Counted from the stretch's first letter, positions 1 to 15,802 are shown. The stretch is 16,703 nt of DNA from Thermoproteota archaeon (GCA_049700215.1 JBNAVT010000029.1:1-16703), one strand, 5' to 3'. Notes: generated from the letters alone by a model not told the origin. Made by a program: numbers and translations.

Positions 1-54
1 GTGACAAGCAACATAGTGGCCAAGCTCTATTTCGATTAACTCCGGCTTCTCGTA
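1..54 (-). pseudogene. C-terminal remnant of an oligopeptide/oligosaccharide ABC ATPase (OppD/OppF C-terminal domain); runs off the window start
   Basis: Manual translation of 54->1 gives YEKPELIEIELGHYVACH, matching the P-x-L-x-E-x(3)-GH-x-VACH tail of OppD/OppF. The rest of the gene is absent; the remnant starts at the (GC)7 motif. Not in the ORF track. Confidence 0.8.
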
Positions 55-251
55 GCGCGCGCGCGCGCTGCAAGTAATGCTACCGTTGTGAATGAAATAA
101 GTATAATGAGCCCGATTATGGCCTTTCTATCGTGCAGAACAACCCTCCATATTTCGAGCCAACCGCTTCTTTGATCACTCCATGTCCATGTGTTTCTTGA
201 ACCTGATTTACGAATGCTCTCAGGTTGATTACTAGTTAAACACGTCTTCAT
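36..251 (-). pseudogene. oppC: Truncated ABC permease OppC/DppC (N-terminus and first TM helix only)
   Basis: ATG abuts the oppB stop. 'WRVVLHDRKAIIGLIILISFTTVALLA' is a typical OppC N-terminal domain, normally followed by P..APYDP. Here it becomes ARARATRSRS* at the (GC)7 tract. Confidence 0.8.
53..69. repeat. TA(GC)nT palindromic motif, (GC)7 copy
   Basis: TAGCGCGCGCGCGCGCT read directly; lies at the oppC/oppD-F junction. Confidence 0.9.
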
Positions 252-1253
252 TTAATACCGGACCCTCGGATCTATAATTACGTACAGTATGTCCGTTATG
301 TAGTTTGCAATAATGACCGCCACAGTTATTATGTAAAAGAATCCTTGGATCAAAGGGTAGTCTTGATTAAGAATTGCGTTAAAAAGCAGTAGCCCTACAC
401 CGGGATAAGAGAAGACGGATTCGGTTACGATCGCGCCACCTACCATTGTCCCAAGGTGTAGCGTGAACAATGTTAAGACCGGTAGTAATGCATTCCTTGC
501 AGCATGCTTAATAATTATTGTCCTTGGCTTCACACCCTTTGCTTCAGCCAAAGTTATGTAGTCCTCACCCATTGTTGAAACCATGTTATCACGCATAATG
601 ATCGTGTAGGAAGCGAAATTGCCTGCAACCAGCGAAAGCGTTGGAAGGACGGCGTGTCTTAGAACGTCTACGATGAATTCTAGGCTGAAGAACGGTTTTG
701 AAGCAACATGGCTCGAATATGCTCCTGCAACAGGAAAGATGGGTATGTAAACCCCGAAGATCATTATCAGAATCATGGCGATCCAAAAATACGGAGTTGA
801 GAGAAGGAATATTGAGATTGTTGAGATTACGGCTTCAAGTTTGGTTCCTCGCTTCCAAGCCGATAGCATTCCTAAAAAAATTCCCAGAGTAGCTGTCAAT
901 ACTGTTGACAGAGTTAGAAGGAAAAGTGTCCAAGGAAGATAGAGCATAACCACATTCCAGACGGGAGCAGGATAATAAGAGTATGAAATCCCGAAGTACG
1001 GTGGAAACGTGAAAACTACGTTCTTCATATATAACGCGAATTGTTCGAGAAGCGGTTTGTCTAAGCCGAACCTGGTGCGGAGAGCTGCCGCCACCTCACC
1101 TGGAAGCCTGTATGAAGAAGCCATCAACTCCTCAGGGCTTCCTGGAATCAATCGAGGAATAACGAATACAAAAATTAGTGCAATTACATAGGTCAACAAT
1201 GCGTTCATACCACGTTGAAGAAGGTACTGCCAAGACAACAAGAGATTTTTCAC
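252..1253 (-). CDS. oppB: ABC transporter permease, OppB/DppB family
   Basis: 333 aa, multiple TM helices, 'FVIPRLIPGSP', 'FGLDKPLLEQF', EAA loop 'EDYITLAEAKGV..HAARNALLP', C-terminal 'DYPLIQG..DILYVIIDPRVR'. Confidence 0.93.
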   Translation of the reverse strand: MKNLLLSWQYLLQRGMNALLTYVIALIFVFVIPRLIPGSPEELMASSYRLPGEVAAALRTRFGLDKPLLEQFALYMKNVVFTFPPYFGISYSYYPAPVWNVVMLYLPWTLFLLTLSTVLTATLGIFLGMLSAWKRGTKLEAVISTISIFLLSTPYFWIAMILIMIFGVYIPIFPVAGAYSSHVASKPFFSLEFIVDVLRHAVLPTLSLVAGNFASYTIIMRDNMVSTMGEDYITLAEAKGVKPRTIIIKHAARNALLPVLTLFTLHLGTMVGGAIVTESVFSYPGVGLLLFNAILNQDYPLIQGFFYIITVAVIIANYITDILYVIIDPRVRY

Positions 1254-1304
1254 CTTTTTCTTAGAATGAGGTCATAACCTATAAGGCTTTCCAGGTCATT
1301 AAGT

Positions 1305-1323
1305 AAAAAAATAGGTTTAAAAA
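1305..1323 (-). terminator. Possible archaeal oligo-T terminator after the SBP gene
   Basis: Minus strand reads TTTTT-AAACCTA-TTTTTTT starting 9 nt after the oppA stop. Confidence 0.3.
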
Positions 1324-1331
1324 CGCTTTCT

Positions 1332-3149
1332 TTAGCGTTTACGAAGAACATAGTACAGAACCACTATCAAGACCACTAGCAGGGTAATTCCTACGGCATA
1401 CAGCTCTATAGGTGGCCCGGGTGGAGGAGTTACTTTTTCTTCAGGAGCTACTTTAACCGCGGGAAGATGAAGATTACAAACTAGGTTGCTCATCGGCCAG
1501 TTAAAACCTTCTTTCATAGGCTCCCACCCCTCAAAGGTGTCAGTCCTATGAGCCCATATATGTTTCGCATAGTATAAGGATAGGAAGGGTAGTTCCTCCG
1601 CTATGATTCGTTGAGCCTCATTGTATATCTCGTGAAGCCTCGCTGGGTCAGATTCCTGACGACTTATTTCCATCAATTCCTTGTAACGATCGTTAGCCCA
1701 CCGGGTCCATCCTCTATAGTAAACACTTTGTCCTATTGGAGTTACCCGAGGATAGAAGAACTTGTTCAACACGAAATCCATTGAAAGCGGATGGTTAGTT
1801 AGTATAACTCCCATGTCATAGTAGCCGTATCCGTAATTATTAACGTAGACTGAACTTGAAAAAGTTCTAACAGAGACGTCAAGCCCTATGTCCTTCCATT
1901 GCTGAGCCACTACTGCGGCAATAAGTGTTTCTCCACCTGCTCTCGCCATGAGCTCTAGCGTCAGTTTTGTTCCGTTGGGATAATACCAGAAACCGTCGGT
2001 TCCAAGTACGAAACCCAGGCTCTCAATAAGTGCCTTAGCTTTAGTAATGTTGCGCGGGTATGTTGGAAGCCCGGGAGCGAGCCACTCCGTGAAGTCGGAT
2101 GGAAGGAACCCATAGCTTGCTACCTTGCCATAACCTCCTGCAGCTAAATCAACTATTTGCTGTCTATCTAAGCCATAGGCCAAAGCCTGTCTAAACTCTT
2201 TTTGTGAGAGAGGATATCTAAGGTTGTTAATAAGTATTCCAGCCCATCTGGCCATCTGCCAAGCACCGTAGGGGTGGGTCGAGAAGGTTTCGACAGTAAC
2301 GTTCGGAAGACCGACTAGCCCAGCCACTTGAGCCGTGGATGGAACCTCTATTATGTCAAACTCTTTACTGGCCATTAAGGCAGGAATATTCGCGTCTGGC
2401 GACAGAAGGGTGACAGTTATGTTCGTTACATATGGCTTTGGTCCCCAGTAATATGGGTTCTGCACCATCTTGATAACAGTCGCTCCTGGAGAGAAGTCAA
2501 TTATCTTAAATGGTCCTGTACCTATTGTTTCAGTGAACCTCGTGGAGTTTGGAGAGAGGAACTCGTCAACGCTCTTCCAAAAATGTTTCGGCATGGGTGT
2601 TAACGCTAACCAGTAATAGAGAAACGGAGAAAACACTTGCTTAAGATGAACTTTAAAGTTTTTACTATCAACAACCTCTATATGGTCAATATAGGGGCTA
2701 ATTCCCCACTCGTCGATTTCTGGAAGAGCTTTAATAACGTCGTAAGTAAAGAGTATGTCTTCTGTTGTAACATCAGTCCCATCCGACCACTTTGCGTTTT
2801 CACGAATTGTGAAAGAATATGTGAGACCGTCTGCCGAGGACGACCATGAAGCGAATATTAGGGGGATTAAGGAGCCGTTTGGGGCTTGACGTGCACCTGT
2901 CTCATGAGCCAGACGAAGTAAGTTCTCTAGAAGTATAATGGGGCCAGCCGAAGTAGCTCCATGCCCCTCTATATACATTACTGGTCCTGTCGTGATCAAC
3001 CCGACTCTCAGGTTGCCACCTGACGGGATAACAACTTCTTCTTGCGCATTCCCCATCCTTAACAGTGTTGGAGTAAACAGGCCAAGGATTATCAACAGGA
3101 GAAGTAATAGCATGCGACAGCGGCATGCATTCATATGCATATTATTCAT
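1332..3149 (-). CDS. oppA: ABC substrate-binding protein, family 5 (OppA/DppA-like, probably oligosaccharide-binding), with C-terminal membrane anchor
   Basis: Hydrophobic N-terminal signal; 'SADGLTYSFTIRENAKWSDG..VTTEDILFT', 'IGTGPF', 'NPYYWG', 'FRQALAYGLDR'; Pro-rich linker, TM helix and RKR tail typical of archaeal SBPs. The true start may be a downstream Met. Confidence 0.92.
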   Translation of the reverse strand: MNNMHMNACRCRMLLLLLLIILGLFTPTLLRMGNAQEEVVIPSGGNLRVGLITTGPVMYIEGHGATSAGPIILLENLLRLAHETGARQAPNGSLIPLIFASWSSSADGLTYSFTIRENAKWSDGTDVTTEDILFTYDVIKALPEIDEWGISPYIDHIEVVDSKNFKVHLKQVFSPFLYYWLALTPMPKHFWKSVDEFLSPNSTRFTETIGTGPFKIIDFSPGATVIKMVQNPYYWGPKPYVTNITVTLLSPDANIPALMASKEFDIIEVPSTAQVAGLVGLPNVTVETFSTHPYGAWQMARWAGILINNLRYPLSQKEFRQALAYGLDRQQIVDLAAGGYGKVASYGFLPSDFTEWLAPGLPTYPRNITKAKALIESLGFVLGTDGFWYYPNGTKLTLELMARAGGETLIAAVVAQQWKDIGLDVSVRTFSSSVYVNNYGYGYYDMGVILTNHPLSMDFVLNKFFYPRVTPIGQSVYYRGWTRWANDRYKELMEISRQESDPARLHEIYNEAQRIIAEELPFLSLYYAKHIWAHRTDTFEGWEPMKEGFNWPMSNLVCNLHLPAVKVAPEEKVTPPPGPPIELYAVGITLLVVLIVVLYYVLRKR

Positions 3150-3235
3150 AAGCCAGGGTTTTTAGTAGCATTATTTAAACTTTACGCTCGCGAAAAACAT
3201 ATTCTTCAATAAGCGATGAGTTTGAACCGGCAGCT

Positions 3236-3250
3236 AAAATTTTTAAATAG
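3236..3250 (+). promoter_or_regulatory. Putative TATA box of the GHL10-like gene, in the divergent promoter region shared with oppA
   Basis: TTTTTAAATA about 32-40 nt upstream of the TTG at 3281; a minus-strand TTTAAATA lies near 3172-3179 for oppA. Confidence 0.4.
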
Positions 3251-3280
3251 ACAGAGCACGTAAATAGAACGATAAGAATA

Positions 3281-4666
3281 TTGAGCAATAAGTTTGAGAT
3301 TGGAGTATGGGCCTATATGGATTTTAGGGAGAAGCCCTATGGACAGGAAGACATTAAGAGGTTTGTAGACTGGTGTGATAAAGTAGGGATAAAGAAGGTG
3401 CTTATGTCGATAAGAACCGGATTATTTGCAAACTTCCCCGGTAGCAAGATGCTTCCTCCGCTTCCGAAATTCAAAGGGTGGAATGCCTTGGGTGAAGTCA
3501 TCAATATGCTTCATGATTCTGGAAAAGAGGTTCATGCCATGATAGTTGTGGCTCCGTGGCTGGAACTCGAAGGGACAACTTCCATTCGAGACGTCGACTT
3601 AACACCTAGGCCAGCTGTCCTCGACAATCCGGAATGGCTGTGCACCGATAGGTATGGCCTTAGAGAAGATAAAGCGCCCTTTTTTGGAACTAGGATCAAC
3701 CTTGACATAGGTAAGCCTGAAGTTAGAGAATATATAGCAGACCATGTTGAAGACGTCCTCTCAGCAAACCCAGATCTTGACGGAATCCATCTAGACTTCA
3801 TAAGGTACAGGTACTGGAAATCAACTATAACAATGGATATTAGGGAGAGTGCTGACTTTGGAAGGCTTTTAAACGAAGGAGATATATTGTATTTAACTAA
3901 GGAGGGGCCCGGTCCTACAGGACGTGCTGCTGTAAAACTAGCGTATTATCTCAAGTTTAGCGATAGAACTAAGTATGCACCCTACAACGGGACTAGAGCC
4001 GTTTTAGAAAGGGAGTATGCCTACTGCTTCTGTGAAAGCTGCTTGAGAAGATTCCAAGAAGAGATGGACCTAGAGATTCCTAGGCGATTGAGAAAGACTA
4101 TAGAGAAGGCGGATTGGATATTTTCAAACCATCCATCAGAATGGTACCTATGGAGAGCAAAGCAGGTTAAAAAACAGGTGAAACTGATCCGGGAGGTAAC
4201 GCGTAGGCTCTCGGCTAGATACAAGCTTTCTGCAGCCACCTTTGCCAGGTTTCCACCGCACGGAATCGTCATCAATGATGCACCTCCTAGTGTAGATGAT
4301 TATGAGTCAGTAGTTTATGCGCTTGGGCAAGACTGGATTTCTTGGGTTAACGATGGTCTCATCGACTTCGCGGAGCCCATGCTCTATTGGACTAAGCCGA
4401 GTGATTTTGGTAAAATCGTTGAACATTTAGTAAGCAGGATAAGGGACAAGAATTTTCCGCTATACCCCGGAATCTTAGTTTCGAACGAATACATCATCGA
4501 GCCAAGCGAGGTGGAGAAGTATGCTAAGAGAACTATTGATTCTTCGGGTTCAGGAATTACGCTATTCCAGTATGCCACGTGGTGTGCCTCTTATAGAAGG
4601 GCTCTGGGGTTACCTGAGATAAGAGATTATGATCAAGAACTTGTTAAGCTGAAGGATCTTCAATAG
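3281..4666 (+). CDS. Glycoside hydrolase-like TIM-barrel protein, GHL10/YddW (DUF187) family
   Basis: 'EVINMLHDSGKEVHAM', 'NPEW', 'LDIGKPEVREYI', 'LDGIHLDFIRY', 'YCFCESC', 'GQDWISWVNDGLIDFAEPMLY', 'GSGITLFQY'. No signal peptide. Confidence 0.8.
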   Translation: MSNKFEIGVWAYMDFREKPYGQEDIKRFVDWCDKVGIKKVLMSIRTGLFANFPGSKMLPPLPKFKGWNALGEVINMLHDSGKEVHAMIVVAPWLELEGTTSIRDVDLTPRPAVLDNPEWLCTDRYGLREDKAPFFGTRINLDIGKPEVREYIADHVEDVLSANPDLDGIHLDFIRYRYWKSTITMDIRESADFGRLLNEGDILYLTKEGPGPTGRAAVKLAYYLKFSDRTKYAPYNGTRAVLEREYAYCFCESCLRRFQEEMDLEIPRRLRKTIEKADWIFSNHPSEWYLWRAKQVKKQVKLIREVTRRLSARYKLSAATFARFPPHGIVINDAPPSVDDYESVVYALGQDWISWVNDGLIDFAEPMLYWTKPSDFGKIVEHLVSRIRDKNFPLYPGILVSNEYIIEPSEVEKYAKRTIDSSGSGITLFQYATWCASYRRALGLPEIRDYDQELVKLKDLQ

Positions 4667-4767
4667 TTGCCCAAAATTAAGTTTTTACCGCTAATTAGGT
4701 ATAGGAAGCCAGCGGATACATAGTTTAATTACAGATACAAATTCGGCTTCTTTAAGCCTTAATTCTT

Positions 4768-6918
4768 TTAATCAATAATTAGTCTGTTTACGAGCCTGAT
4801 GTCTCTCGACGAGGCGCCCACCCTTACCTCGTACTCTCCCTTCTCTACAACCCATTCTCCACCGTCGAAGCTTGCGAGCGAACTGAAGTCAAGCTCAACC
4901 CTAATCTCCTCCTTCTCGCCAGGGTTTAAAAGCCTCGTCTTATGGAACTCCTTAAGCTCCTGGAAAGGCTTATCCAACCTACCCTTCGGCGCCCTGATAT
5001 AGATCTGGGCAACCTCTTTCCCCGGGAGGCTCCCAGTGTTCTCAACCTCGAAGGAAACAACCACCCTATTGTTAACCGTCTCAACCCTTAAATTCCTGTA
5101 TTCGAAGCTCGTGTAGGACAGGCCGAAGCCGAACTCGTAGGCAGGCTCAACCCCGAAAGTGTCGTAATACCTGTAGCCAACGTATATCCCCTCGTCGTAC
5201 ACGACTCTCTGCGGGTTTTCTCCCGGCTCTCCTGGGAAGCTCCAGGATGGAACGTCAGAATAGTCCACGGGGAAGGTTGTTGGAAGCCTACCCGACGGAT
5301 TTCTCTCCCCGGAAACAATGTCGGCAACTATCCTCCCCGTTTCCTGGCCGGCTTGCCACGCTAACAGGATTCCGTCAACCATGTTCCTCCAGCTGGCGAC
5401 CTCTATCGGGGAGCCTATGTTCAACACGGCTACAACCTTTTTACCATGCTGATGAAAGGCTTTAGAAACCCTCTCCACCAGGGTTCTCTCGTCATCGCTC
5501 AAGTAGAAGTCTCCCTTCTCAGGCTTCCTATCGTAGCCCTCGCCCGATATCCTGCTTATCACGATGACCGCGACATCGTTCCTCTCAGAAAACCTCCCTA
5601 TCTCCCCCTCGCTTAGAAAGTCCTGGGGAACTGGTTTAAAGACCTCGCCGAACATTGTTTTCTCTATCCTGTATTCAGCCCTACTCCTGATCTCAGCCAA
5701 GTATCTCGCGTATGCCTCCGCAAGCTCCTCGTCTATCCTCAGGCGTCTCTCCCTCATCCCGTCGAGTATAGATATTACGTACCTCGGGTGAGTGTCGCCG
5801 CTCCCAGTACCGCCCTTTATAGTCTCTATCTGGCCTGTTCCGAAGAGAGCTATTCTAGCATCCTTGCCCACGGGCAACGCCCCATTGTTCTTAAGAAGGA
5901 CAACGCCCTCCACGCCGGCCTCATAGGCGACCCTAGCGTGAGCATCGAGATCAGGCTTGTTAGAGTAAGCGTACCCTTTGAAGGAAGGCGAGTTGACCAG
6001 AACCCTCAGAATGTTCTTCACATTCCTTATGAGGACTTCCTCGTCAAGCCTTCCTTCTCTAACAGCATTAATTATCGCCTCCACCTCGTCCTTCCTATTC
6101 TTGTCAACCTGATGCGCCTTCCCAGGCATTATCATATCGTTGCCAGCCCTCATCATCTCCACCGGGTCGTCTCTAGCGAACCAGTCTGTCATCACGAAGC
6201 CTTCAAACCCCCAGTCGCACCTCAGAACCCTCGTTAGAAGCCACTCGTTCTGCGAACAGTGTTTCCCGTTCAGCTTGTTGTACGCGCTCATCACTGTCCA
6301 CGGCTTAGCCTTCTTAACAGCTATCTCGAAACCCTTAAGATATATTTCTCTAAGCGCTCTTTCAGAAACAAGCGTGTCGATCAGGAAACGGTTCGTCTCC
6401 TGATTGTTGGCTGCGAAATGCTTCAGGCAGGCTCCAACCCCTTGAGACTGAACACCCTTAACGAAGGCTGCAGCCATCTCCCCGGTGAGGAGAGGATCCT
6501 CAGAGTAGTACTCGAAGTTCCTGCCGCAGAGGGGATTCCTGTGAATATTCATCGCCGGCGCTAGAAGAATATCCACCCCGTACTCCCTAACCTCCTCGCC
6601 GACACACCTGCCGACAGCCTCAAGAATCTCCCTGTTCCAGGTTGAGGCGAGCATCGTCTCAACGGGAAAAGCCGTAGCATGATACGTTTTATCATCGTTC
6701 TCCCTCCTAGGGTTTATTCTTAAGCCAGCCGGCCCGTCAGCCAGCACGGCTGAAGGTATTCCAAGCCTTTCAACAGGATGAGTCTCGCCGGCAGCACCCG
6801 GGACTCTGGGCAAGGGGTTTCCAAACATGCCGGGTATGCCTACTCCCACGACGATCCTGGCTTTCTCCTCAAGAGTCATCTTAGAAACGGTCTCGGGAAC
6901 CTCCTCCAGCGTTACCAA
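4768..6918 (-). CDS. Glycoside hydrolase family 3 beta-glucosidase (three domains, C-terminal Fn3-like)
   Basis: 'LADGPAGLR', 'LLAPAMNIHRNPLCGRNFEYYSEDP', 'LKHFAANNQE', nucleophile motif 'GFVMTDWF', 'RISGEGYDR', 'YDEGIYVGYRYY', 'FGFGLSYT'. Resembles Thermotoga Bgl3B-type enzymes; no signal peptide. Confidence 0.96.
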   Translation of the reverse strand: MVTLEEVPETVSKMTLEEKARIVVGVGIPGMFGNPLPRVPGAAGETHPVERLGIPSAVLADGPAGLRINPRRENDDKTYHATAFPVETMLASTWNREILEAVGRCVGEEVREYGVDILLAPAMNIHRNPLCGRNFEYYSEDPLLTGEMAAAFVKGVQSQGVGACLKHFAANNQETNRFLIDTLVSERALREIYLKGFEIAVKKAKPWTVMSAYNKLNGKHCSQNEWLLTRVLRCDWGFEGFVMTDWFARDDPVEMMRAGNDMIMPGKAHQVDKNRKDEVEAIINAVREGRLDEEVLIRNVKNILRVLVNSPSFKGYAYSNKPDLDAHARVAYEAGVEGVVLLKNNGALPVGKDARIALFGTGQIETIKGGTGSGDTHPRYVISILDGMRERRLRIDEELAEAYARYLAEIRSRAEYRIEKTMFGEVFKPVPQDFLSEGEIGRFSERNDVAVIVISRISGEGYDRKPEKGDFYLSDDERTLVERVSKAFHQHGKKVVAVLNIGSPIEVASWRNMVDGILLAWQAGQETGRIVADIVSGERNPSGRLPTTFPVDYSDVPSWSFPGEPGENPQRVVYDEGIYVGYRYYDTFGVEPAYEFGFGLSYTSFEYRNLRVETVNNRVVVSFEVENTGSLPGKEVAQIYIRAPKGRLDKPFQELKEFHKTRLLNPGEKEEIRVELDFSSLASFDGGEWVVEKGEYEVRVGASSRDIRLVNRLIID

Positions 6919-6970
6919 TTCTAATCCCCGGGAACGAATAGTTTAAAGATTATTTAAGCTTTTCAATTAA

Positions 6971-6983
6971 TACGTAGCGCGTA
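6971..6983. repeat. Degenerate TA(GC)nT motif copy
   Basis: TACGTAGCGCGTA; shares the ACGTAGCGCG left flank with the copies at 9640 and 13471. Confidence 0.6.
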
Positions 6984-7119
6984 AATTAAGGGCTTGCTAC
7001 AACAAATTAAACAATATCGATCCTGGTATTAGAGTAACCGTTTCCCGGAAACGTGGGAAAACCTGTCTTCACGCCAACCCTAATCATAACCTATAAATTT
7101 AGACTCCCCGTTAAGACTC

Positions 7120-7203
7120 ATGCAGGTCAAGATCCGCCCAGCGGAGGAAGAGGATTCGGAGCCGGTTGAAAACATTGTGGGAGACTGGCTTAGCGCGCGC
7201 TAA
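7120..7203 (+). pseudogene. N-terminal remnant of a probable GNAT-family acetyltransferase
   Basis: Manual translation MQVKIRPAEEEDSEPVENIVGDWLSAR*; 'IRPA-xx-ED' is the typical GNAT start. TATA-like CTATAAAT at 7091-7098. The stop comes from the palindrome at 7190-7203. Confidence 0.6.
7190..7203. repeat. TA(GC)nT motif, perfect 14-bp palindrome TTAGCGCGCGCTAA
   Basis: Read directly. Confidence 0.9.
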
Positions 7204-7254
7204 TGCTTGAACTTTCTTTAAACAGTCTTCAAAAGTAGAAAAAGTATTACGATA

Positions 7255-7572
7255 TTATTCTCTTCTCTCCACGATTATCTTGCACTTCGTCGCTATTGCT
7301 GCAATCACACCTAGGGCAGCCATCCATGGTGCTAAGATGGCGCCTATCACTCCAACGGTAGCAGGAATCTCAAGCAGCGTTTCATCTTTCTCGCTCTTAA
7401 CAATGATTCTCGTAACATTCCCTTCATGAATAATGTTTTTAATCGTTTTAACAAGATCCTCGGAAGAAACGGAGTATTCCTCTCTCGAAACATTATCCAC
7501 TGGAGAACCGCATGCGGAACAGAAGGCAGCGTCATCAGGCAGTTCCCTGCCGCACTTCTGACAATGCTTCAA
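7255..7572 (-). CDS. Zinc-ribbon plus DUF4342 domain protein
   Basis: N-terminal 'CQKCG..DDAAFCSACG' zinc ribbon, then 'IIHEGNVTRIIVK..LLEIPATVGVIGAILAPWMAALG..IIVER' (DUF4342). GAGGTG RBS before the TTG. Confidence 0.85.
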   Translation of the reverse strand: MKHCQKCGRELPDDAAFCSACGSPVDNVSREEYSVSSEDLVKTIKNIIHEGNVTRIIVKSEKDETLLEIPATVGVIGAILAPWMAALGVIAAIATKCKIIVERRE

Positions 7573-7720
7573 ACACTCTCCACCTCACTATATGTCTGGC
7601 AGCAAGTTTTTAAACGTTTTAATGCTGAACCCCGATTTCTGGAAGCAGGCTTTGAAAAACGAGGATCCGGCTGGTTTCAACCCTCATAGTCGGCGTAGAC
7701 GCCTGGGAAACTTCATAAAA

Positions 7721-8149
7721 CTACGTTATTAGAGTCCCGTTCTTTTTATCAAAGAGATGAAGCTTCCTTTTGTTTATCGACACCCAAACGGTGGCTTCAG
7801 GCTTCCATTCCTCAGCCGTCTCCACCTTAAACAGTATGTCTCCTATGTGGAGGCTGACTATAGCTTTACCCCCCAGCGGCTCCGCCACATAGACCCTGGC
7901 CTTAATACGTTCCCCACCGGGTGTTTCATGCAAGGATATGTCTTCAGGTCTAATCCCCAGTATGACTTCACTCCCCACGTGAGGCGCTAGAAGACCCTTA
8001 AACTCAGTCAGGTCAAGGCTAAAGTGTACCGCATCCACGTACAGCTTATCGTCTTTCTCAATCAGCCTACCTTCCGTCATGTTCATCGGCGGGCTTCCTA
8101 TAAAGCTCGCTGTGAACACGTTAGCCGGACGATAGTATAGTTCATCGGG
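7721..8149 (-). pseudogene. 3' remnant of a MalK/MsmX-type sugar ABC ATPase (regulatory/TOBE domains)
   Basis: Extending the frame to 8149 gives PDELYYRPANVFTASFIGSPPMN..LGIRPEDI..AEPLGG..LHLFD. The whole nucleotide-binding domain is missing. Confidence 0.85.
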
Positions 8150-8724
8150 GAGTAGCCTTCTTCCTGACGCTGATCTCCCTCGTCGTGATCCTTTGCCATT
8201 TCTACCTTAACCCTTACCCCGTGACCCCGTGGCAAACGCTCGGCTGCTTCCTAGCCATGACTGTTCTCACGTTTTGCGCTAAGAGGCTTAGAGGCTTGAA
8301 GCTAGGCTGCGCCGAGAGCCGTGTGAGGAACAGGTGGCTTTGGCTGCTCGGAGCATCAGGCGGGTTCATGTATTTCTTCATCGTGTTTGGGCTTCTGCCC
8401 TTGGTTGGCATCCCAGTTTTGCTCACGATCTCTATCGGCATCGCATTAACCATCCTTATTACAGTAATCGTCCTCAGGCTCTCTAAGAAAGGCATGGGCG
8501 AGCTAAACGCACTTGGGCTTGCATCCGGCTTCCTGACTCCCCTGATATTCCTCGACCCCATTTTAGAGGCTTCCAGCCCAACCCCCGAGGATTTCAGAGG
8601 GCAGACGGCGGTCGGAGTAATCTTCACTCTGTTTTTAATACTGCTCGGCCGCAAGACCAGCCGCAGGGAGGCGGTGACGCGGCAGGACAAGCAGACTGGG
8701 CAGTCTCTCATGCTCAGCCCCTAA
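8149..8724 (+). pseudogene. 5'-truncated multi-pass membrane protein
   Basis: About 6 hydrophobic segments. The hydrophobic frame continues upstream of the GTG at 8185 (GVAFFLTLISLVVILC) to the junction with the MalK remnant. No promoter or RBS seen. Confidence 0.55.
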
Positions 8725-8829
8725 GTGTCGCGCTCTGCAGACGAGGATTTTAAAAGTTTAGCATGCGCCCTCCTCATTCGAGCGTTTCGCTACCGAGAAA
8801 GACTGCGGCTTCAAACATAGTCTAATCAG

Positions 8830-8838
8830 TAGCGCGCT
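8830..8838. repeat. TA(GC)nT motif, (GC)3 copy
   Basis: TAGCGCGCT read directly. Confidence 0.75.
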
Positions 8839-8911
8839 GAGATTTTCCAACTGCCCAGCTTTCTATCTATCGTCAGCCGCTGCATGAACAGCCGCCTGAA
8901 GAACTGCCGGA

Positions 8912-8923
8912 AGCACGCGCGCT
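8912..8923. repeat. A(GC)5T motif copy with one G>A change
   Basis: AGCACGCGCGCT, at the apparent truncation point of the sialidase-like pseudogene. Confidence 0.7.
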
Positions 8924-9604
8924 CCATCTTACTCCAACTACCTCTGAAAACTATGAGCCCATGCATTATCCGCGGACAGGATGGGAAAACATCGTTAACG
9001 TCTATGCCCAATATCCCGCAGCACTTGGCAACGTTTGCCGCGACTGGAAACATTATGTCCCCGTTATCCAGTACTTCAATATTGCATCCCGCATAGGCTT
9101 CGTTAAAATTAACATAGTCTTCACGCGCCCAATCGTCTTCGCTGAAATCCTCTCCCTCCTCGTATTTCACCTGCTGCCATTTCCAATCCCTCAGATCCTT
9201 CGAAACCCAGATGAAAGAGTGGTCGGTGAAAGTCTTCTCACCCTTCCCCCAAAACCTCCTGTAGCTTTCACGATGATCCTCCAGGACAGCCTCTGCATAT
9301 TCAGGGCAACATAGTGGTCGTGAACAGGATTATAGACTCCTGTTTCAGGCCTCGACCAGAGCAGCTCCATGCCGCCGCGAACCCTGTAGGCATCACGGTA
9401 TATGTCCACCCAACCAGTCCAGGTTCCACCATTATCCTCCGAATAGCGAACATACATCTCGTTTTCATAATCCGATTCGCTTGTAACGCTTCGGATCTCC
9501 ATCCTCTTCAGACCCTTGCCGACGTAGCTCTGCGTCCGGCTTACGCATTTTGAGGGGCCGGGTGACTTTTCAACGATCTCTCTGGTAATTTTGACTCGCG
9601 CCAT
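8924..9604 (-). pseudogene. Frameshifted, 3'-truncated sialidase-like/BNR-repeat (Asp-box) protein
   Basis: ATG at 9604; Asp-box 'RYSEDNGGTW'. Adding one base near 9286 joins ORFs 9191..9625 and 8826..9170 (MQRL-x-LEDHRESYRRFWGKGEKTFTDHSFIWVSKDLRDWKWQQVKYEEG). About 227 codons, too short for a beta-propeller; ends at the motif. Confidence 0.65.
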
Positions 9605-9618
9605 CTTAGCCAGTATGG

Positions 9619-10152
9619 TTAACACCCGGTTCGAGTTAAACGTAGCGCGCGCTTTTCGAATGGTTTAATCACTGTTTCCCTTCCCGGGTTTTCCTCAGCT
9701 TTAACCGCTTCTCCCTGCGGAATGGGAATTGCCTCCGTGCCCAGGTAGGAGTTCAAATCCTCGGATGTCAGCAGGAGGAACAATATGCCCGTGCTCAGTA
9801 TCCCTGTGAGCAACCCCATTAAATGGGGTGCTGCCCCAATAGCAGCGGTTTCAGTATCGATCTTTTCAGACAAGACGTCTGTAAGAAGCGGGATAAAACC
9901 GTAGAGAGAGAAGAATATCCCTAGGACGGCGAAAACGGTGAAAACCAGCAGGGAAACCATGAACGTGACCACTCCCCGTAGCTTGTAAAACATTATTATA
10001 AGCGTAATGAAGAGGGGAAGGAACAGCAGGTCCCACACTATCCACTGTTTCAAGAAAAACCATTTTAGAAGCCAGTAGACAAGCCAGGAAACCATTATCA
10101 TCAAAACGAGTATGACTACCCGCCGGAGTTCCTTGGGTTTCTGCTGGGACAA
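9619..10152 (-). CDS. Hypothetical membrane protein (about 4 TM), C-terminus probably truncated at the motif
   Basis: Four hydrophobic segments and a charged tail; the frame crosses the motif at 9643-9653 and stops shortly after. TATA-like TTTTAAA near 10174-10180. Confidence 0.65.
   Translation of the reverse strand: MSQQKPKELRRVVILVLMIMVSWLVYWLLKWFFLKQWIVWDLLFLPLFITLIIMFYKLRGVVTFMVSLLVFTVFAVLGIFFSLYGFIPLLTDVLSEKIDTETAAIGAAPHLMGLLTGILSTGILFLLLTSEDLNSYLGTEAIPIPQGEAVKAEENPGRETVIKPFEKRALRLTRTGC
9643..9653. repeat. TA(GC)nT motif, (GC)4 copy
   Basis: (ACG)TAGCGCGCGCT read directly. Confidence 0.9.
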
Positions 10153-10311
10153 CCCCCTTGTAATGAGACTAGTGTTTAAAATAAAAAGCTTTCTTTAATT
10201 GAAGAAAACATCCGGAAGGAGACGTAACCTTGTTAGAATGCTCTCCACAGGCTTGGACGCGTCGCTGGGAAAAGAAAAATTTATTATTTAATCAAAACGC
10301 GGAGGAAGGTG

Positions 10312-11445
10312 ATGAAAGAAAGAGCGCTGGAAGCTTTAAACCTGAGGCGCGTGAAAGGCCTTCTTCTCTCCGGAGCCCCGACGTGCGATGAAACGCTTGT
10401 AGAGAGGCTGACAGGGGTTAAAGTGTACCGGGGGAGCCAGAGGGAGAAGATGAAAGCGGTTTTCGAAGCTCTCGACGTAGACTTGTTCTACCAGCTTGGA
10501 GTTAATTTAAACGTCGTGTGGAGCGATAGTAAGCCTAGGCTCATCGAAGGGTTTTTCGAAGAATTGAAAGAGGACTTCCCGTTTACGGATGCTTTCCACG
10601 TAGCCTATAAAAACCTCAGGCTGAGGAGAACAGAAACAGCCTCCCAGCTTTGGGTTGTAGAGAGGCCTTTTAAAAACTATGAGGAGCTGGTAAGCTACTT
10701 GAAGAAGCATGATCCTCGCGAGGATGAGCCTAGGTCCGTGAGTGAAATAACCAGCGAGTACAGGAGGGTATTCCAGGAATATGAGGAGCTGCTGGGTGAA
10801 ACCACGTTATATGCCGGAGAATTCTACTTAACGCTCTTCACGTATCTAGATATTCACATTGGTCTGCAAATGATAGCTAGACTAAGTCGTCAAAACCCGG
10901 AAATCCTGGATGAGCTCGTCTCCAACTATGCTCAGGTGGCTAGAAAGCATGTTGAAGCCTGGTCTAACACCGGGATAAAAGTTTTCGTTTCGCACGACGA
11001 CGTCGCCTGGAGGGGCGGCTTGTTCTTCCCAGCGGAATGGTATAGGAAGCACGTTCTACGATGGTGGAAACATATTTGGAAGCCTGTTAAAGACAAGGGT
11101 ATAAAACTGATATATGTTTCAGACGGAGACTACAGGGGTCTGATGGAGGACCTAGTTGAATTAGGGGTTGACGGCTTCCACGTGGAATGGGACCCCAGGT
11201 TTTCGAGAAGAGACGTTGAAAACCTGGTGGAGAAATACGGTAGTGAAAAGACGTTTCTCCTCCACCCGAGTTACGAGGTTTTGACCCGTGGAAGCGTTTC
11301 TGAAGTGGAGGAGGAGGCTAGATGGTTCACCGCCCTATCGAGGAAATACCCCTCAATATTCTTTGCAGGAACCCCGCCCGGCAACCCCGTAAACGAGGAA
11401 GTCTTCCTCAGAACATGGTTTTCCGAAAGACACGGTGAAAACTAG
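10312..11445 (+). CDS. Uroporphyrinogen decarboxylase (URO-D)/MtaA-CmuA superfamily protein
   Basis: 'HDDVAWRGGLFFPAEWYRKHVLRWWKHIW..GIKLIYVSDGDYRGLMEDLVELGVDGFHVE', 'LTRGSVSEVEEE'. GGAGG RBS at 10301-10305; alternative GTG start at 10309. Confidence 0.8.
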   Translation: MKERALEALNLRRVKGLLLSGAPTCDETLVERLTGVKVYRGSQREKMKAVFEALDVDLFYQLGVNLNVVWSDSKPRLIEGFFEELKEDFPFTDAFHVAYKNLRLRRTETASQLWVVERPFKNYEELVSYLKKHDPREDEPRSVSEITSEYRRVFQEYEELLGETTLYAGEFYLTLFTYLDIHIGLQMIARLSRQNPEILDELVSNYAQVARKHVEAWSNTGIKVFVSHDDVAWRGGLFFPAEWYRKHVLRWWKHIWKPVKDKGIKLIYVSDGDYRGLMEDLVELGVDGFHVEWDPRFSRRDVENLVEKYGSEKTFLLHPSYEVLTRGSVSEVEEEARWFTALSRKYPSIFFAGTPPGNPVNEEVFLRTWFSERHGEN

Positions 11446-11471
11446 GCTCCTGCAATCCCGGGTAACCAGCA

Positions 11472-11723
11472 TTAAAAAAGCGGGTCGCCTGAGCAGTGTT
11501 GTTTTTTAATTATTCGAGTGGTGAGAAACAGTCCGAGAGCAAACAGGAGTAGCGACAAGGTTCCTAACGCCCCGCACTGCACCCCTTTCCAGAAAACGTC
11601 TGAGTGAGTTGGGTACTCGCCTGTAAACAGTTGCCAAAAAAATAATGGCGGAGGAGAGGAAAAGCAGAAACGAGAAAACAGCGTAAAGCAACGCTTCAAC
11701 GTTTTCCGAAAACCCGCAGGCAT
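11472..11723 (-). CDS. Small hypothetical membrane protein, possibly frameshifted
   Basis: TTTATAA about 35 nt upstream of the ATG and a GGTGG RBS. One TM in this frame (GALGTLSLLLFALGLFL); a second clear TM lies in the overlapping frame (LLYAVFSFLLFLSSAIIFLATVY). Confidence 0.4.
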   Translation of the reverse strand: MPAGFRKTLKRCFTLFSRFCFSSPPPLFFWQLFTGEYPTHSDVFWKGVQCGALGTLSLLLFALGLFLTTRIIKKQHCSGDPLF

Positions 11724-11809
11724 GCTCTACCCACCGTCTTCTCTTCTAAAAGGCCGCTTATAAACCCGATGTTAATGTTGACGCTGGAAACCCGCCTCCC
11801 GCCGGAATT

Positions 11810-11820
11810 AAACTTTTAAG
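11810..11820 (+). promoter_or_regulatory. Putative TATA box of the cupin-dehydrogenase operon
   Basis: AAACTTTTAAG about 31-40 nt upstream of the ATG at 11851. Confidence 0.45.
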
Positions 11821-11850
11821 CCCGGGTTCAGTTTACAACATGGATGAGAA

Positions 11851-12192
11851 ATGTGGAAGATTATAGATTCTGAAACGATCCCTTTCACGCCTTATCCCAA
11901 GGGGGTTTCAAGCATAAAGAGGATTGTCGAGAAGGAGAAGATTGGAGCCGAGCGTATAAGCGGGTTCGGCCTAATCCAAGTTCCCCCGGGGGGAGTCTTC
12001 GGCCCCCACGAGCACCCTGAAAGAGAAGAGATATACTATGTTCTCTCCAACACCGGGACACTCATAGTTGGGAGCGAGGAGATCCCTGCCAGGGAAGGTT
12101 TAACCCTCTATGTTTCAGGTGAGGAGCCTCATGGAATTAGGAACCAGGGTGACAAACCGCTCCTCGTAGTCTTCGTAACCGTCTACAAGTAG
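11851..12192 (+). CDS. Cupin domain protein (cupin_2)
   Basis: Motif 1 'PPGGVFGPHEHPEREEIYYVLSNTG' and motif 2 'GLTLYVSGEEPHGIRNQG' retain the His/His/Glu/His metal ligands. Confidence 0.9.
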   Translation: MWKIIDSETIPFTPYPKGVSSIKRIVEKEKIGAERISGFGLIQVPPGGVFGPHEHPEREEIYYVLSNTGTLIVGSEEIPAREGLTLYVSGEEPHGIRNQGDKPLLVVFVTVYK

Positions 12193-12220
12193 TTGGGCCT
12201 CGGGGTGAAGGTGTAGCAGG

Positions 12221-13246
12221 ATGAAGGCAGTGGTATACCATGATTTCAACGATTTCCGGTGGGAGGAGGTGGAAACCCCTAGCATCGGCCCCGATGAGAT
12301 TCTAGTTAGGGTAAGGGCATGCGGCCTCTGTTCAACCGACGTGTGGAAAGCAATGTATCACGAGGCTAAGCCCGGCACGGTGCTGGGCCACGAGGTCTCT
12401 GGAGAGGTGGCGGAAACCGGTTCAAACGTTTCAGCAGTAAAGGTTGGCGACAGGGTGGCGGTGTACCACCGTGCTGAATGCGGAGCATGCTACTACTGTA
12501 GGCGTGGCGATGAAACACTCTGCAGCGAGTACCGTCAGCAATCGATTTTCCCAGGCGCGTTCGCAGAGTATATTCGCGTCACATCGAGGCTTGTCCGAAA
12601 ATCCGTTTTCAGAATCCCTGACGAGATGACGCATGAAGAGGCAGCGATGATAGAGCCGACAGCCTGCTGCGTAAGGGCGGTTTCAAAGTGTGGAATATCT
12701 CCGGGAGACAGTGTTCTGGTAATCGGCGACGGCCCCATGGGGCTGCTGAACGCTCAAGTCTCAAAGTCAGCCGGGGCCCTCGTGATGCTCAGCGGCCACC
12801 ATGACAGCCGCGTCGAAGCATCTTTAAGACTCGGAGCAGACTACGCGTTCAACTCGAACAAGACTAGCATTAGGGAGAAGGTTTTGGAGTTGACAGGGGG
12901 GCGTGGAGCCGATTTCATCATAGTGGCAGTCTCTTCCACGGATGCTGTTCAGCAATCCGTGAAGCTTGTTCGAGAAGGCGGCAAGATATGCGTCTTCGGC
13001 GACTTTAGAGACGTTCCCCAGCCTAGTCTCAGCCTAGACCTTAAGCCAGTGGTCCACGGCAGCATCAGCCTTTTAGGCAGCTGGGGCTGCTCAACAAAAG
13101 ACTATCATGCTGCCCTCAACCTGGTGAAAACCGGGAGGGTGAGGGTTAGGGAGATAATAACCCACAGGTTTCCGCTGGAAAGATTCCCAGAGGCCCTCAA
13201 CGTGTTCCTAGGCAAGAACTGTTTAAAGATCATTCTCCACCCTTAA
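12221..13246 (+). CDS. Zn-dependent medium-chain dehydrogenase (sorbitol/L-iditol 2-dehydrogenase-like)
   Basis: 'CGLCSTD', 'LGHEVSG', structural Zn 'CGACYYCRRGDETLC', Rossmann 'VLVIGDGPMG'. GGTG-type RBS. Confidence 0.92.
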   Translation: MKAVVYHDFNDFRWEEVETPSIGPDEILVRVRACGLCSTDVWKAMYHEAKPGTVLGHEVSGEVAETGSNVSAVKVGDRVAVYHRAECGACYYCRRGDETLCSEYRQQSIFPGAFAEYIRVTSRLVRKSVFRIPDEMTHEEAAMIEPTACCVRAVSKCGISPGDSVLVIGDGPMGLLNAQVSKSAGALVMLSGHHDSRVEASLRLGADYAFNSNKTSIREKVLELTGGRGADFIIVAVSSTDAVQQSVKLVREGGKICVFGDFRDVPQPSLSLDLKPVVHGSISLLGSWGCSTKDYHAALNLVKTGRVRVREIITHRFPLERFPEALNVFLGKNCLKIILHP

Positions 13247-13328
13247 CCAGTGTTAACCGCATGTGAGGAGGGTTTCTAGAGGAACCGCAGTATTTAACGC
13301 AAGATGTGAAACGTTTAAGAGGAGGTAA

Positions 13329-13400
13329 ATGGAGACACGTATTTTCCCCATAGAGAGCTCTATGCTCCCGGGCACTTCGGAAACTGGTAGCGCGCGCTAA
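13329..13400 (+). pseudogene. Gene start remnant (23 codons) with intact expression signals, ended by the motif
   Basis: TATTTAA at 13291-13297, GAGGAGGT at 13319-13326, ATG at 13329; METRIFPIESSMLPGTSETGSAR*. Family not recognised. Confidence 0.4.
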
Positions 13401-13625
13401 CATGCTTGCCGACGAAAGGACCAGGCTGCTGAGTTTAAGCTTGACCTGCTAGCCACTCCGAACCATATTTACGTAGCGCGCGCTCAGGTTCCTAGGGAGA
13501 TTATGGCTAGGGATCTCTCGGACAAACAGGCTGAGCGCCGCAAGATGCGTGCGCTAGTGTTAATAAATACTGGGCGTGAACTATGCGAGACACGGGTTGC
13601 ATCGAGCCACGTTAGCGTGCGCTAA
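13388..13625. repeat. Cluster of four TA(GC)nT motif copies separated by unique sequence
   Basis: TAGCGCGCGCTAA 13388-13400; TAGCGCGCGCT 13474-13484; TGCGTGCGCTA 13546-13556; TTAGCGTGCGCTAA 13612-13625. Confidence 0.8.
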
Positions 13626-13643
13626 AAAATGCGGGAGCCAGAT

Positions 13644-13654
13644 AGTTTTAAAAA
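13644..13654 (+). promoter_or_regulatory. Putative TATA box of the beta-helix gene
   Basis: TTTTAAAA at 13646-13653, about 28-35 nt upstream of the ATG at 13681. Confidence 0.45.
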
Positions 13655-13680
13655 CGGCTTAACACTTCTCAGCTTAAAAA

Positions 13681-15681: not shown

Positions 15682-15802
15682 GCAAGAACTTCATCCTGAA
15701 ACCCTTGCTGGAAGAAACTGAGATTTACGTTGGCTTGAAAAGGATTTATCCCGCCCCACTGCTACCCGAAGCGCTTATTAGCGTTCACAGTCTAAGTCTA
15801 TC

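Follow-up and report, generated by a model that had tools for sequence, protein, structure and literature searches.

The stretch of DNA analysed here, called the window below, is 16,703 nucleotides long and represents the first 16,703 bases of contig C29 (23,916 bases) in a Thermoproteota genome assembly, G000, ending at a run of N. The host is a hot-spring archaeon, and its assembly comprises 2.09 Mb in 85 contigs, with 49% G+C and a completeness estimate of 94.6%. The element in question is a short, self-complementary run of alternating G and C, (GC)n, with A or T at its borders, which lies at joints where sequence present in relatives has been lost or replaced. The first-pass annotation had described it as a palindrome marking gene-truncation joints, and this proved right at every window joint that could be compared with relatives, and genome-wide as well. 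The runs and the gene remnants beside them are listed here, with the strand for the remnants.

36-251, minus strand: oppC remnant, the N-terminal 71 codons alone, after oppB and the binding protein
53-69: TA(GC)7T, joint of an internal oppC deletion allele, with 1-52 as the far side of the deletion
6975-6983: decayed short copy, TA GCGCG TA, where the blastn blocks of L001, L002 and L005 stop at 6972-6973
7120-7238, plus strand: GNAT acetyltransferase remnant, a pseudogene, of which L006 has a longer form
7191-7202: TA(GC)4TA joint, about 320 bp of the GNAT gene replaced (alignment to L006)
8830-8838: TA(GC)3T joint, left edge of a remnant of about 80 bp
8912-8923: decayed (GC)5 joint with one transition, right edge of that remnant, about 940 bp missing
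9643-9653: TA(GC)4T joint, about 42 bp replaced at the 3′ end of the open reading frame (ORF) 9619-10152, minus strand (alignment to L004)
13329-13650, plus strand: remnant of a gene of about 1.5 kb with four lesions, intact as a 492-codon ORF in L006 (5979-7457)
13388-13399: TA(GC)4TA joint, about 155-200 bp deleted (subject gap of 199 bp in G011)
13474-13484: TA(GC)4T, almost a pure insertion, net +6 with 2-3 bp lost (L001, L002, L006, L007)
13546-13557: decayed copy, joint of a deletion of about 1.1 kb (alignment to L006)
13612-13625: decayed TA(GC)4TA (one transition; one mismatch to the decamer A(GC)4T), about 32 bp replaced (L006)

Runs in the window and at orthologous loci

The exact 11-mer TAGCGCGCGCT was found at all four positions annotated earlier (7191, 9643, 13388 and 13474 on the plus strand), and both strands together give six matches, because two of the copies are the full palindrome TA(GC)4TA and count on each strand, against 0.01 expected by shuffling; none of 200 shuffles reached six. 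Likewise, GCGCGC has 15 overlapping matches against 2.67 expected, a number reached in none of 200 shuffles. The decamer with up to two mismatches has 12 matches against 5.8 expected, which 3 of 200 shuffles reached and which is not significant alone, and therefore the decayed copies rest on the comparison with relatives and not on counts. The length variants and degenerate copies are all present as placed in the first-pass annotation, except that the copy at 8912-8923 is a (GC)5 with one mismatch and not an exact one. Consistent with the earlier remark that intact genes lack it, GCGCGC is absent from every Pfam-supported gene of the window, and the two exceptions, where it does fall within a reading frame, are the final codons of ORF 9619-10152 (9645-9652) and the oppC remnant (55-68).

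Eight syntenic loci (L001, L002 and so on) were compared, in which the URO-D-like protein is 76-91% identical to that of the window. They belong to metagenome-assembled genomes (MAGs) with the record titles Candidatus Brockarchaeota, Thermoproteota, Crenarchaeota, Nitrososphaerota, Nitrososphaera sp. and uncultured archaeon, and their divergence of about 15-20% makes single-base calls at the joints uncertain. The whole-genome comparator was G011 (2.03 Mb, 92% complete). In blastn, the alignment blocks of the syntenic loci break at the runs, and the orthologous sites of the relatives lack the runs, which answers in the negative the earlier question of whether the motif pre-existed at the breakpoints.

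At the left end, window 1-52 matches without a difference the terminal bases of contig C36 (14620-14671), which lie just upstream of an ORF for an ABC ATPase, and because this end lies beside the start of that ORF, the (GC)7 joint is taken as an internal deletion of oppC; the remnant itself has a weak match to OppC_N (E 1.4e-4, 22.1 bits, cut-off 23.9). The flanks of the run at 7191 align to L006 981-1181 and 1502-1702, with a subject gap of 320 bp and no unaligned query base beside the 8-nt run, and the TA on either side of the run already exists in L006. The deleted part of the GNAT gene (L006 1294-1536) matches Acetyltransf_7 (E 9e-12) and Acetyltransf_1 (E 8e-11). In this same region, L001 and L002 share one (GC)4-joined deletion, L004 has another joined by (GC)3, the window has a third, and L003 has a deletion without GC whose joint, by eye, is a 4-nt repeat. 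In L004, L006 and L007, inspection by eye finds the GNAT reading frame broken at the same place, which suggests that the gene was probably a pseudogene before the various GC-joined deletions occurred.

L004 has 1157 bp between the blocks matching window 8148-8762 and 8922-13242, the flanks of 8912-8923 leave subject gaps of 936 and 940 bp in L004 and L001, and about 940-1150 bp of L004/L001 are thus missing from the window in the 8830/8916 region. About 30 bp from the 9643 joint, L006 has a (GC)4 joint of its own (at L006 2049), and GCGCGC also lies close by in L001. Each of the four lesions in the 13329-13650 remnant carries a run or a decayed run; the missing parts of this gene also exist in L001, L002 and L007, and its 492-codon counterpart in L006 matches no Pfam family. 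The left TA of the 13388 joint already exists in four relatives, the 8-nt run at 13474 stands against a 5-bp subject gap in L007, and at 13546 the blastn blocks 13433-13549 and 13556-16703 align to L006 6239-6349 and 7450-10618. All five truncations proposed in the first-pass annotation (oppC, the GNAT remnant, a 'sialidase-like' gene, ORF 9619-10152 and the 13329 remnant) hold against the relatives, although the lost ends are not always gene starts, as had been stated, and the 'sialidase-like' label has to be dropped, since the intact L004 counterparts match no Pfam family.

The Pfam-supported genes of the window are the following, and by their Pfam content the earlier statement that no enzyme candidate is encoded here is correct.

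252-1253, minus strand: oppB
1332-3149, minus strand: family-5 binding protein
3281-4666: GHL10-like protein
4768-6918, minus strand: GH3 glycosidase
7255-7572, minus strand: DUF4342 protein
10309-11445: URO-D-like protein
11851-12192: cupin
12221-13246: zinc alcohol dehydrogenase
13681-15681: beta-helix/GH141 protein
from 15803: AAA_15/21 ATPase

Further alleles were seen in the sequencing runs X2, X3 and X5 from other studies, which represent relatives and not the strain of the window and so cannot vouch for its joints. At window 11450-11800 (about 350 bp, including ORF 11472-11723 on the minus strand), the X3 relative has GCACGCTA, a decayed run, instead, and the L007 stretch is also shorter there. 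A further truncated gene is that of a MalK-type ABC ATPase at 7721-8119 (minus strand), of which the C-terminal OB_MalK/TOBE part alone is present and the ATPase domain is missing; no exact run was noticed at its edges.

Runs across the genome, its relatives and the source sample

A genome-wide count against a Markov null, proposed earlier as a check, gave 118 copies of the decamer A(GC)4T in 2.09 Mb versus 1.1-20 expected (1.6, 1.1 and 20 under orders 1, 3 and 5, the order-5 model already containing the motif), and 35 copies of the 12-mer TA(GC)4TA versus 0.07, 0.03 and 1.5 under the same orders. Runs with n of at least 3 number 537 in G000 (273 with n=3, 204 with n=4, 53 with n=5 and 7 with n=6-9), and A(GC)nT has 53, 118 and 33 copies at n=3, 4 and 5, respectively. 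A(GC)4T is about 3-fold commoner than any other A-N8-T word, and the phase is strict, with two copies of A(CG)4T. At n of at least 4, 74% of the runs are bordered by A (on the opposite side by T), and in 50% the second base outwards is T (or A); 35 of the 118 A(GC)4T copies are flanked by TA on both sides, and beyond the TA the base composition is flat. Just 8 of 1066 flanks resemble another flank, all of them paralogues or strain variants, and therefore the run is not the tip of a longer repeat.

The runs lie mostly in dispensable surroundings. An ORF proxy, which is crude and not a gene call, covers 87% of the genome and holds 44 of the 155 copies (28%) of A(GC)nT with n of at least 4, and the gaps containing runs are long (median 358 versus 94 bp). 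The runs prefer neither divergent, convergent nor tandem neighbours, nor gene starts or ends, and they cluster, reaching 12 in 20 kb where the mean is about 2.5. Variants with one mismatch are mainly CpG transitions (19, 14, 12 and 10 copies), as for an unselected decaying sequence, and GCGC and CGCG are not avoided (ratios 0.90 and 1.12). GCGCGC is the most over-represented 6-mer palindrome of the genome (ratio 1.8), and TAGCTA, formally the motif with n=1, is the second (1.7).

Compared with G011, which has 37 runs with n of at least 4 versus 264 in G000, the runs coincide with differences in length. Both 300-bp flanks are collinear in G011 for 29 of 243 usable G000 sites with n of at least 4, versus 684 of 1000 random sites, and unequal length characterizes 21 of these 29 run sites versus 16 of the 684 random ones. 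Among the 21, G011 is longer by more than 10 bp in 13 and by 4-10 bp in two, and G000 is longer by 4-30 bp in six; the alignments include deletions of between 29 bp and 9.6 kb, 639 bp replaced by a (GC)9, an insertion of +11 and two equal-length replacements. In a census of 1.49 Mb of aligned sequence, events of 8-299 bp carry a run in 11 of 159 cases where G000 is shorter versus 0 of 142 where G011 is shorter, with a background of 0.3-1.6%. Broken down into events of 8-29, 30-299 and at least 300 bp, the run stands at the G000 joint in 7/129, 4/30 and 4/31 of the G000-shorter events (15/190 in all) and at the G011 joint in 0/121, 0/21 and 3/22 of the G011-shorter events (3/164), and by these three large events G011 is not a clean negative. 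The association of runs with joints is thus a strong one. When 25 run sites in three regions were classified, 5 lay at breaks, 5 were crossed by the alignment and 15 had no homologue in the compared loci; the corresponding shares for random sites are 5%, 67.5% and 27%.

Contig C19 offers further cases: a 369-bp stretch of three relatives is replaced by 9 nt (net -360), a +9 in-frame run is inserted in a conserved gene where four relatives lack the insertion and no TA is present, and divergence from the closest relative (95% identity) sets in exactly at a run. Judged by such alignments, the run also occurs as an in-frame insertion in conserved genes outside the window. Inspection by eye shows the flanking A/T to pre-exist at some joints and to be new at others (e.g., joints 8, 19 and 27), and joint and run have TA, A, T or GCG in common in some cases and not in others, as far as relatives diverged by about 15-20% can tell. 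By comparison with relatives, these data show the runs to be scars, absent at orthologous sites and replacing variable lengths, and show that GC-joined events arose independently in different lineages and that the scars are inherited and decay.

Two places in G000 stand out besides. Seven runs lie within 3.3 kb at C19:25700-29000 (L009 3700-7000), among cut-up genes without a homologue elsewhere in G000, which by eye resemble what we take to be a DUF1156 methylase and a DUF499 ATPase. At C20:5933-5940, an 11-nt insertion with (GC)4 lies, by eye, inside a tRNA-gene-like sequence.

The source sample itself was approached through X1, the likely source sequencing run, in the form of contigs from Logan, an independent assembly. 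This assembly spans the copies at 6975, 7191, 8830, 8916, 9643, 13388, 13474, 13546 and 13612 with 0-3 differences and does not span the (GC)7 joint at 55-68, so that independent confirmation at the level of contigs was obtained for nine window copies and not for this one. Beyond 55 and 69, the X1 contigs have other sequence on both sides, namely the undeleted oppC allele, and at the level of contigs this indicates that the likely source sample holds both the (GC)7 deletion allele and the intact one. Three contig ends (C29/C36, C28/C10 and C67/C58) are places where the assembly graph splits into an intact form and one joined by (GC)5-7; the outward pieces in these cases are the end or interior of another contig and are unique chromosomal sequence. 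Because intact and scarred alleles coexist, GC-joining is probably recent or ongoing. The start of C41 and the end of C69 are two diverged versions of one locus, both with a run (one with a transition), which suggests two strains in the assembly.

Runs within 200 bp of contig ends are enriched 3-fold (26, with 8.7 expected) and frequently lie some 54 bp from the end; those with n of at least 5 make up 8/18 of the runs with n of at least 4 there (counted by eye) versus 60/264 genome-wide. The enrichment near contig ends, together with the (GC)7 joint that the X1 Logan contigs do not reproduce, is what an artefact of assembly, adapter or chimera would have in its favour. Such an origin is hardly credible, since the other nine window copies are spanned by the independent X1 assembly, one joint is common to two different MAG records (L001 and L002), run length and decay state vary, and 10 of the genus's 17 species-level genomes contain the run, in records of differing naming and assembly styles; it is also found in contigs of three further sequencing runs from other studies. 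An artefact is thus disfavoured for all copies except possibly that at 55-68.

Within the genus, A(GC)4T is frequent in G000 (118 copies), G008 (88), G002 (70), G009 (33), G007 (32), G006 (18) and G010 (16), low in G013 (6), G011 (3) and G014 (3), and absent from seven others, and the reversed-motif control has 0-3 copies. Among 401 Thermoproteota genomes, the 12-mer is present four or more times in G000, G008, G002, G007, G009, G006, G010 and four distant genomes of other families of the phylum, namely G285, G389, G142 and G105, with decamer counts of 90, 35, 30 and 22 and reversed controls of 29, 1, 0 and 0. The motif is therefore patchy and not confined to the genus. G105 is a complete, single-contig genome, and among the copies in the distant genomes several are located some 57-300 bp from a contig start. 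The 14-mer TA(GC)5TA occurs once each in 36 viral contigs, and no viral contig is enriched.

Candidate enzymes, mechanism and rival explanations

Protein families were searched in a panel of three motif-rich genomes (G000, G002 and G008) and two motif-poor ones (G011 and G003). Ku (PF02735), C5-methylase (PF00145) and the IS630 DDE_3 transposase (PF13358) were found in none of the five, N4/N6 methylases lying outside this search, and the PolX palm PF14792 gave sub-threshold matches alone, in G000 and G011. A reverse transcriptase (RVT_1) was found in none of 21 genomes, and self-BLAST of G000 found no multicopy element. Several candidates were rejected: Prim-Pol (PF09250) is in G002 alone of the panel; TnpB does not track the motif (5 in G000, 6 in G011, 0 in G002); nor does PolY, which was found in G000, G011, G003, G142 and G389 and not in G004, G015, G105, G285 or G213. 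Topoisomerase IB, which seemed specific to G000 relative to G011, is in 14 of the 17 genus genomes; the G000 gene (C32:16970-18595) encodes the eukaryote-type enzyme with Topoisom_I_N, Topoisom_I and Topo_C_assoc.

G000 has 194 ORFs of at least 180 codons without a good match in G011, many of which are core genes missing from G011, and 20 of the 194 were annotated. Among these differential ORFs are a 253-codon NTP_transf_2 protein (C19:39957-40718) and an Fpg/Nei glycosylase (C19:18387-19220). The comparison of gene content also yielded AEP2, a 273-codon protein belonging to the superfamily of archaeo-eukaryotic primases (AEP) (C17:241-1062; PF01896, E 1.6e-7). Its DxD motif, the sGxRGFHxH motif and the aspartate of the third motif are invariant or nearly so in 41 homologues, and its structural model (predicted local distance difference test 84.6) is closest to archaeal PriS (E 1e-10), with the LigD polymerase domain at E 2e-6 and template modelling (TM) scores of 0.54/0.52. 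By model and alignment, AEP2 is thus predicted to have the AEP fold and intact catalytic motifs I-III. It is not the replicative PriS, as it scores 45.7 bits against the PriS equivalog, below the cut-off of 143.5, and a separate canonical PriS of 377 codons is present in all five panel genomes. Its 93 homologues in the database have a generic name or none, and no relative was found in viral contigs and no family in PHROG or PADLOC.

In six genomes AEP2 directly follows RadA2, a second RadA paralogue, which is full-length and shares about 50% identity with the canonical RadA, itself found in 15 of the 17 genus genomes; RadA2 passes the RadA equivalogs (460.7 bits versus 259; 446.8 versus 361). 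In G000 the pair lies outside the window, at C59:5553-6308 and C17:3-1062, and the flanks of the insertion site map to two contigs of G011. In G008 the module (C7:376639-381247) has the order PolY, RadA2, AEP2, HEPN and a minimal nucleotidyltransferase. RadA2-AEP2 is intact in G000, G002, G008, G007, G006 and G013, G009 has AEP2 fragments alone, and the pair was not found in G010, in G011 or in eight genomes with 0-3 motif copies. Since the carriers form one clade, this agreement between module and motif is not independent evidence. No description of the pairing was found, and the text of PMC5862659 does not contain the word RadA.

Based on these findings, we consider it probable, though far from certain, that the self-complementary (GC)n is filler from end joining or gap repair without Ku that persists in the form of neutral scars. 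Of the three mechanisms named in the first-pass annotation, the best fit is filler made or ligated in while a break is repaired. The runs measure 8 nt most often and 6-18 nt overall, with some odd lengths, and no template lies nearby. We infer a break as the initiating lesion, a polymerase as the maker of the tract, and the pairing of two tails. Broken or gapped DNA would be rejoined without Ku, leaving at the joint a short tract of alternating G and C, mostly 8 nt and flanked by A/T. G and C would be added to the 3′ ends, and the two tails would pair mutually, which they could do because (GC)n is its own complement; slippage and re-extension in 2-nt steps would continue until the pairing is stable at high temperature, whereupon the gap would be filled and the joint sealed, with 0 bp to several kb lost between the ends. 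As selection would remove events in needed genes, the scars would accumulate in pseudogenes, intergenic DNA and accessory islands, where they would be inherited and decay through CpG transitions. AEP primases are described as capable of terminal transfer and of microhomology-mediated joining, both in archaea and on mobile elements (PMC12019639, PMC11724360), and AEP2 with RadA2 may be named as a weak candidate for the enzyme, with a low chance of being the right one. More broadly, the scars could come from a dedicated, horizontally spread, Ku-independent system that adds alternating-GC tails to broken ends and uses the self-complementarity of these tails to join them, the enzyme being RadA2-AEP2 or an unrecognized protein of the motif-rich lineages in three families; we regard this as possible and tentative.

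Several points weigh against end-joining filler as the origin. The enzyme candidate is weak and the break was not observed, so the mechanism is a reading of the scars, and the model leaves the strict phase A-GC...GC-T and the A/T flanks unexplained. Most joints lack a run, which is present in 15 (8%) of the 190 events in which G000 is shorter than G011; the block-end test with BLAST is modest (6 of 80 ends within 20 bp of a run versus 1.9 expected, P = 0.012); most motif sites cannot be polarized, 157 of 243 being without adjacent homology in G011 and 15 of 25 in three regions without a homologue in the compared loci; and polarity comes from few relatives, such that 'G000 shorter' includes insertions in G011. 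As MAGs tend to lose multicopy elements, a missing transposon is weak evidence. The correlation of motif and enzyme genes across taxa, another check proposed earlier, holds for RadA2-AEP2 within the genus and fails in distant motif-rich genomes: AEP2/RadA2 tracks the motif inside one clade alone, no AEP2 orthologue was found at E<=1e-15 in the motif-rich G105, G285, G142 and G389, and G023 has an AEP2 homologue (3e-52) with three motif copies. AEP2/RadA2 is for these reasons kept as a weak candidate.

Excision footprints would be the main rival source of the scars. A TA-targeting cut-and-paste transposon in the style of IS630/Tc1-mariner, with GC-repeat ends, would on excision leave TA, remnants of its ends and a second TA, and imprecise excision or recombination between two copies would remove the flanks. 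The 35 of 118 A(GC)4T copies flanked by TA on both sides, the T at -2 in 50% of the copies with n of at least 4, the several joints with one breakpoint at a pre-existing TA and the other at an arbitrary site, the palindromic scars clustered in dispensable DNA, a phylogenetic distribution as patchy as that of a mobile agent and the under-representation of multicopy elements in MAGs all agree with it, and the mobile-element footprint proposed in the first-pass annotation therefore stays a rival. It is nevertheless unlikely, as neither the element nor an IS630-type transposase was found (DDE_3 in 0/5 panel genomes), TnpB does not track the motif, self-BLAST of G000 gave no multicopy family and the 1066 run flanks no recurrent sequence, the outward pieces at contig ends consist of chromosomal sequence that is unique, n varies from 3 to 9, and insertions at non-TA sites and equal-length replacements occur. 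A preformed self-complementary oligonucleotide, [T]A(GC)4T[A], a by-product of a nucleic-acid enzyme or defence system, might instead be captured at breaks and ligated in. The sharp length mode (118 copies at n=4 versus 33 at n=5 and 53 at n=3), the A in 74% and next T in 50% of the runs with n of at least 4, as if a unit were trimmed from its ends, and the flanking A/T that is new at joints 8, 19 and 27 would suit such a unit; however, no source was found, with RVT_1 unmatched in 21/21 genomes, runs of n=5-9 and odd fillers of 9 and 11 nt exist, and the share of n of at least 5 is higher near contig ends (8/18 versus 60/264), which makes this quite improbable.

The runs might also precede the deletions, if microsatellite slippage made GC tracts whose Z-DNA or hairpin potential then provoked deletions nearby. 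A few joints do reuse a pre-existing GCG or AGC (joints 4 and 14), and Z-DNA is cited as promoting genome instability in PMC4060949, a survey of DNA-structure motifs. The general suppression in prokaryotes of Z-DNA-promoting patterns, alternating-GC runs among them, which the same survey reports, intact orthologous sites without a GC tract at either breakpoint, a tract exactly at the joint and not beside it, and the strict phase (118 copies of A(GC)4T versus 2 of A(CG)4T) render this explanation very unlikely. Hardly better placed is a selected motif, be it a site for protein binding or regulation, a HIP1-like palindrome that a methylase or biased repair keeps in place, or a site-specific recombinase's core site. 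The motif is indeed a perfect palindrome, strongly over-represented, clade-specific and enriched in intergenic DNA, but its positions are not conserved between relatives, it shows no preference for gene starts, ends or orientation, it lies in pseudogenes and decays by transitions, a C5-methylase was found in 0/5 genomes, and GCGC (0.90) and CGCG (1.12) are not avoided. The recombinase core site suggested earlier, with HIP1 as its parallel, does not fit, since recombination between sites cannot explain the deletions when the intact, ancestral loci have no site at either breakpoint.

Relation to known systems

In the literature searched, supplements excluded, no description was found of a GC-run filler at prokaryotic deletion joints or of the palindrome itself, and the text of PMC8065059 has no mention of palindrom-, repeat, pseudogene, primase or RadA. 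How archaea without Ku rejoin double-strand breaks is an open question, and this genome seems to log such repair as hundreds of scars. If the end-joining origin is true, a highly iterated palindrome can originate as a mutational by-product and not as a selected site, the scars provide a natural marker to date and count deletions during gene loss in uncultivated archaea, and an enzyme activity that makes or uses alternating-GC linkers at hot DNA ends would be new to repair biochemistry and possibly useful for DNA assembly. Were the dedicated system true, it would be an archaeal counterpart of non-homologous end joining (NHEJ) with a sequence-defined linker and would, as a by-product, leave a datable record of tolerated breaks and generate a highly iterated palindrome de novo. 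Because the decamer is enriched in unrelated hot-spring lineages, including one complete genome, comparative and perhaps experimental tests are feasible.

HIP1 of cyanobacteria is abundant inside genes and linked to a methylase. The runs resemble it as a short perfect palindrome in huge, lineage-specific excess, but unlike HIP1 they avoid ORFs, mark the joints of insertions and deletions and decay, and a C5-methylase was not found in the five panel genomes. Excision of Tc1/mariner-IS630 elements, which target TA, leaves short palindromic remnants between TAs, with flanking deletions when it is imprecise; here, by contrast, neither an element, a transposase nor a conserved subterminal sequence was found, and the 'footprint' measures 6-18 nt.

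Fillers of the known end-joining systems, namely eukaryotic NHEJ, polymerase theta and bacterial LigD, are heterogeneous or copied from nearby. With these (see also PMC11724360), the scars share variable deletions, a few extra nucleotides at the joint, the lack of function and possible microhomology. They differ in belonging to a single defined class of sequence, namely alternating GC of modal length 8 nt, in their hundreds of copies, and in that Ku was not found. The archaeal replicative primase PriSL, according to PMC12019639, performs Ku-independent microhomology-mediated end joining with terminal transfer, annealing of short homologies and small indels, and so resembles the route proposed here in being archaeal, Ku-independent and served by a primase of the AEP superfamily (here a candidate); the abstract of PMC12019639 mentions no GC-specific filler. 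Canonical PriS alone cannot explain the clade specificity, because it is present in motif-rich and motif-free genomes alike.

Thermophilic polymerases reportedly synthesize palindromic repeats in vitro without a template ('ab initio'), as is said to have been found by Ogata and Miura and by Liang and colleagues. The scars would resemble these products as self-complementary repeats that grow by slippage or hairpin elongation at high temperature, although that is an in vitro phenomenon and we know of no genomic scars attributed to it. Filler at repair joints is known as such, and the sequence-defined GC filler proposed here would be a new form of it.

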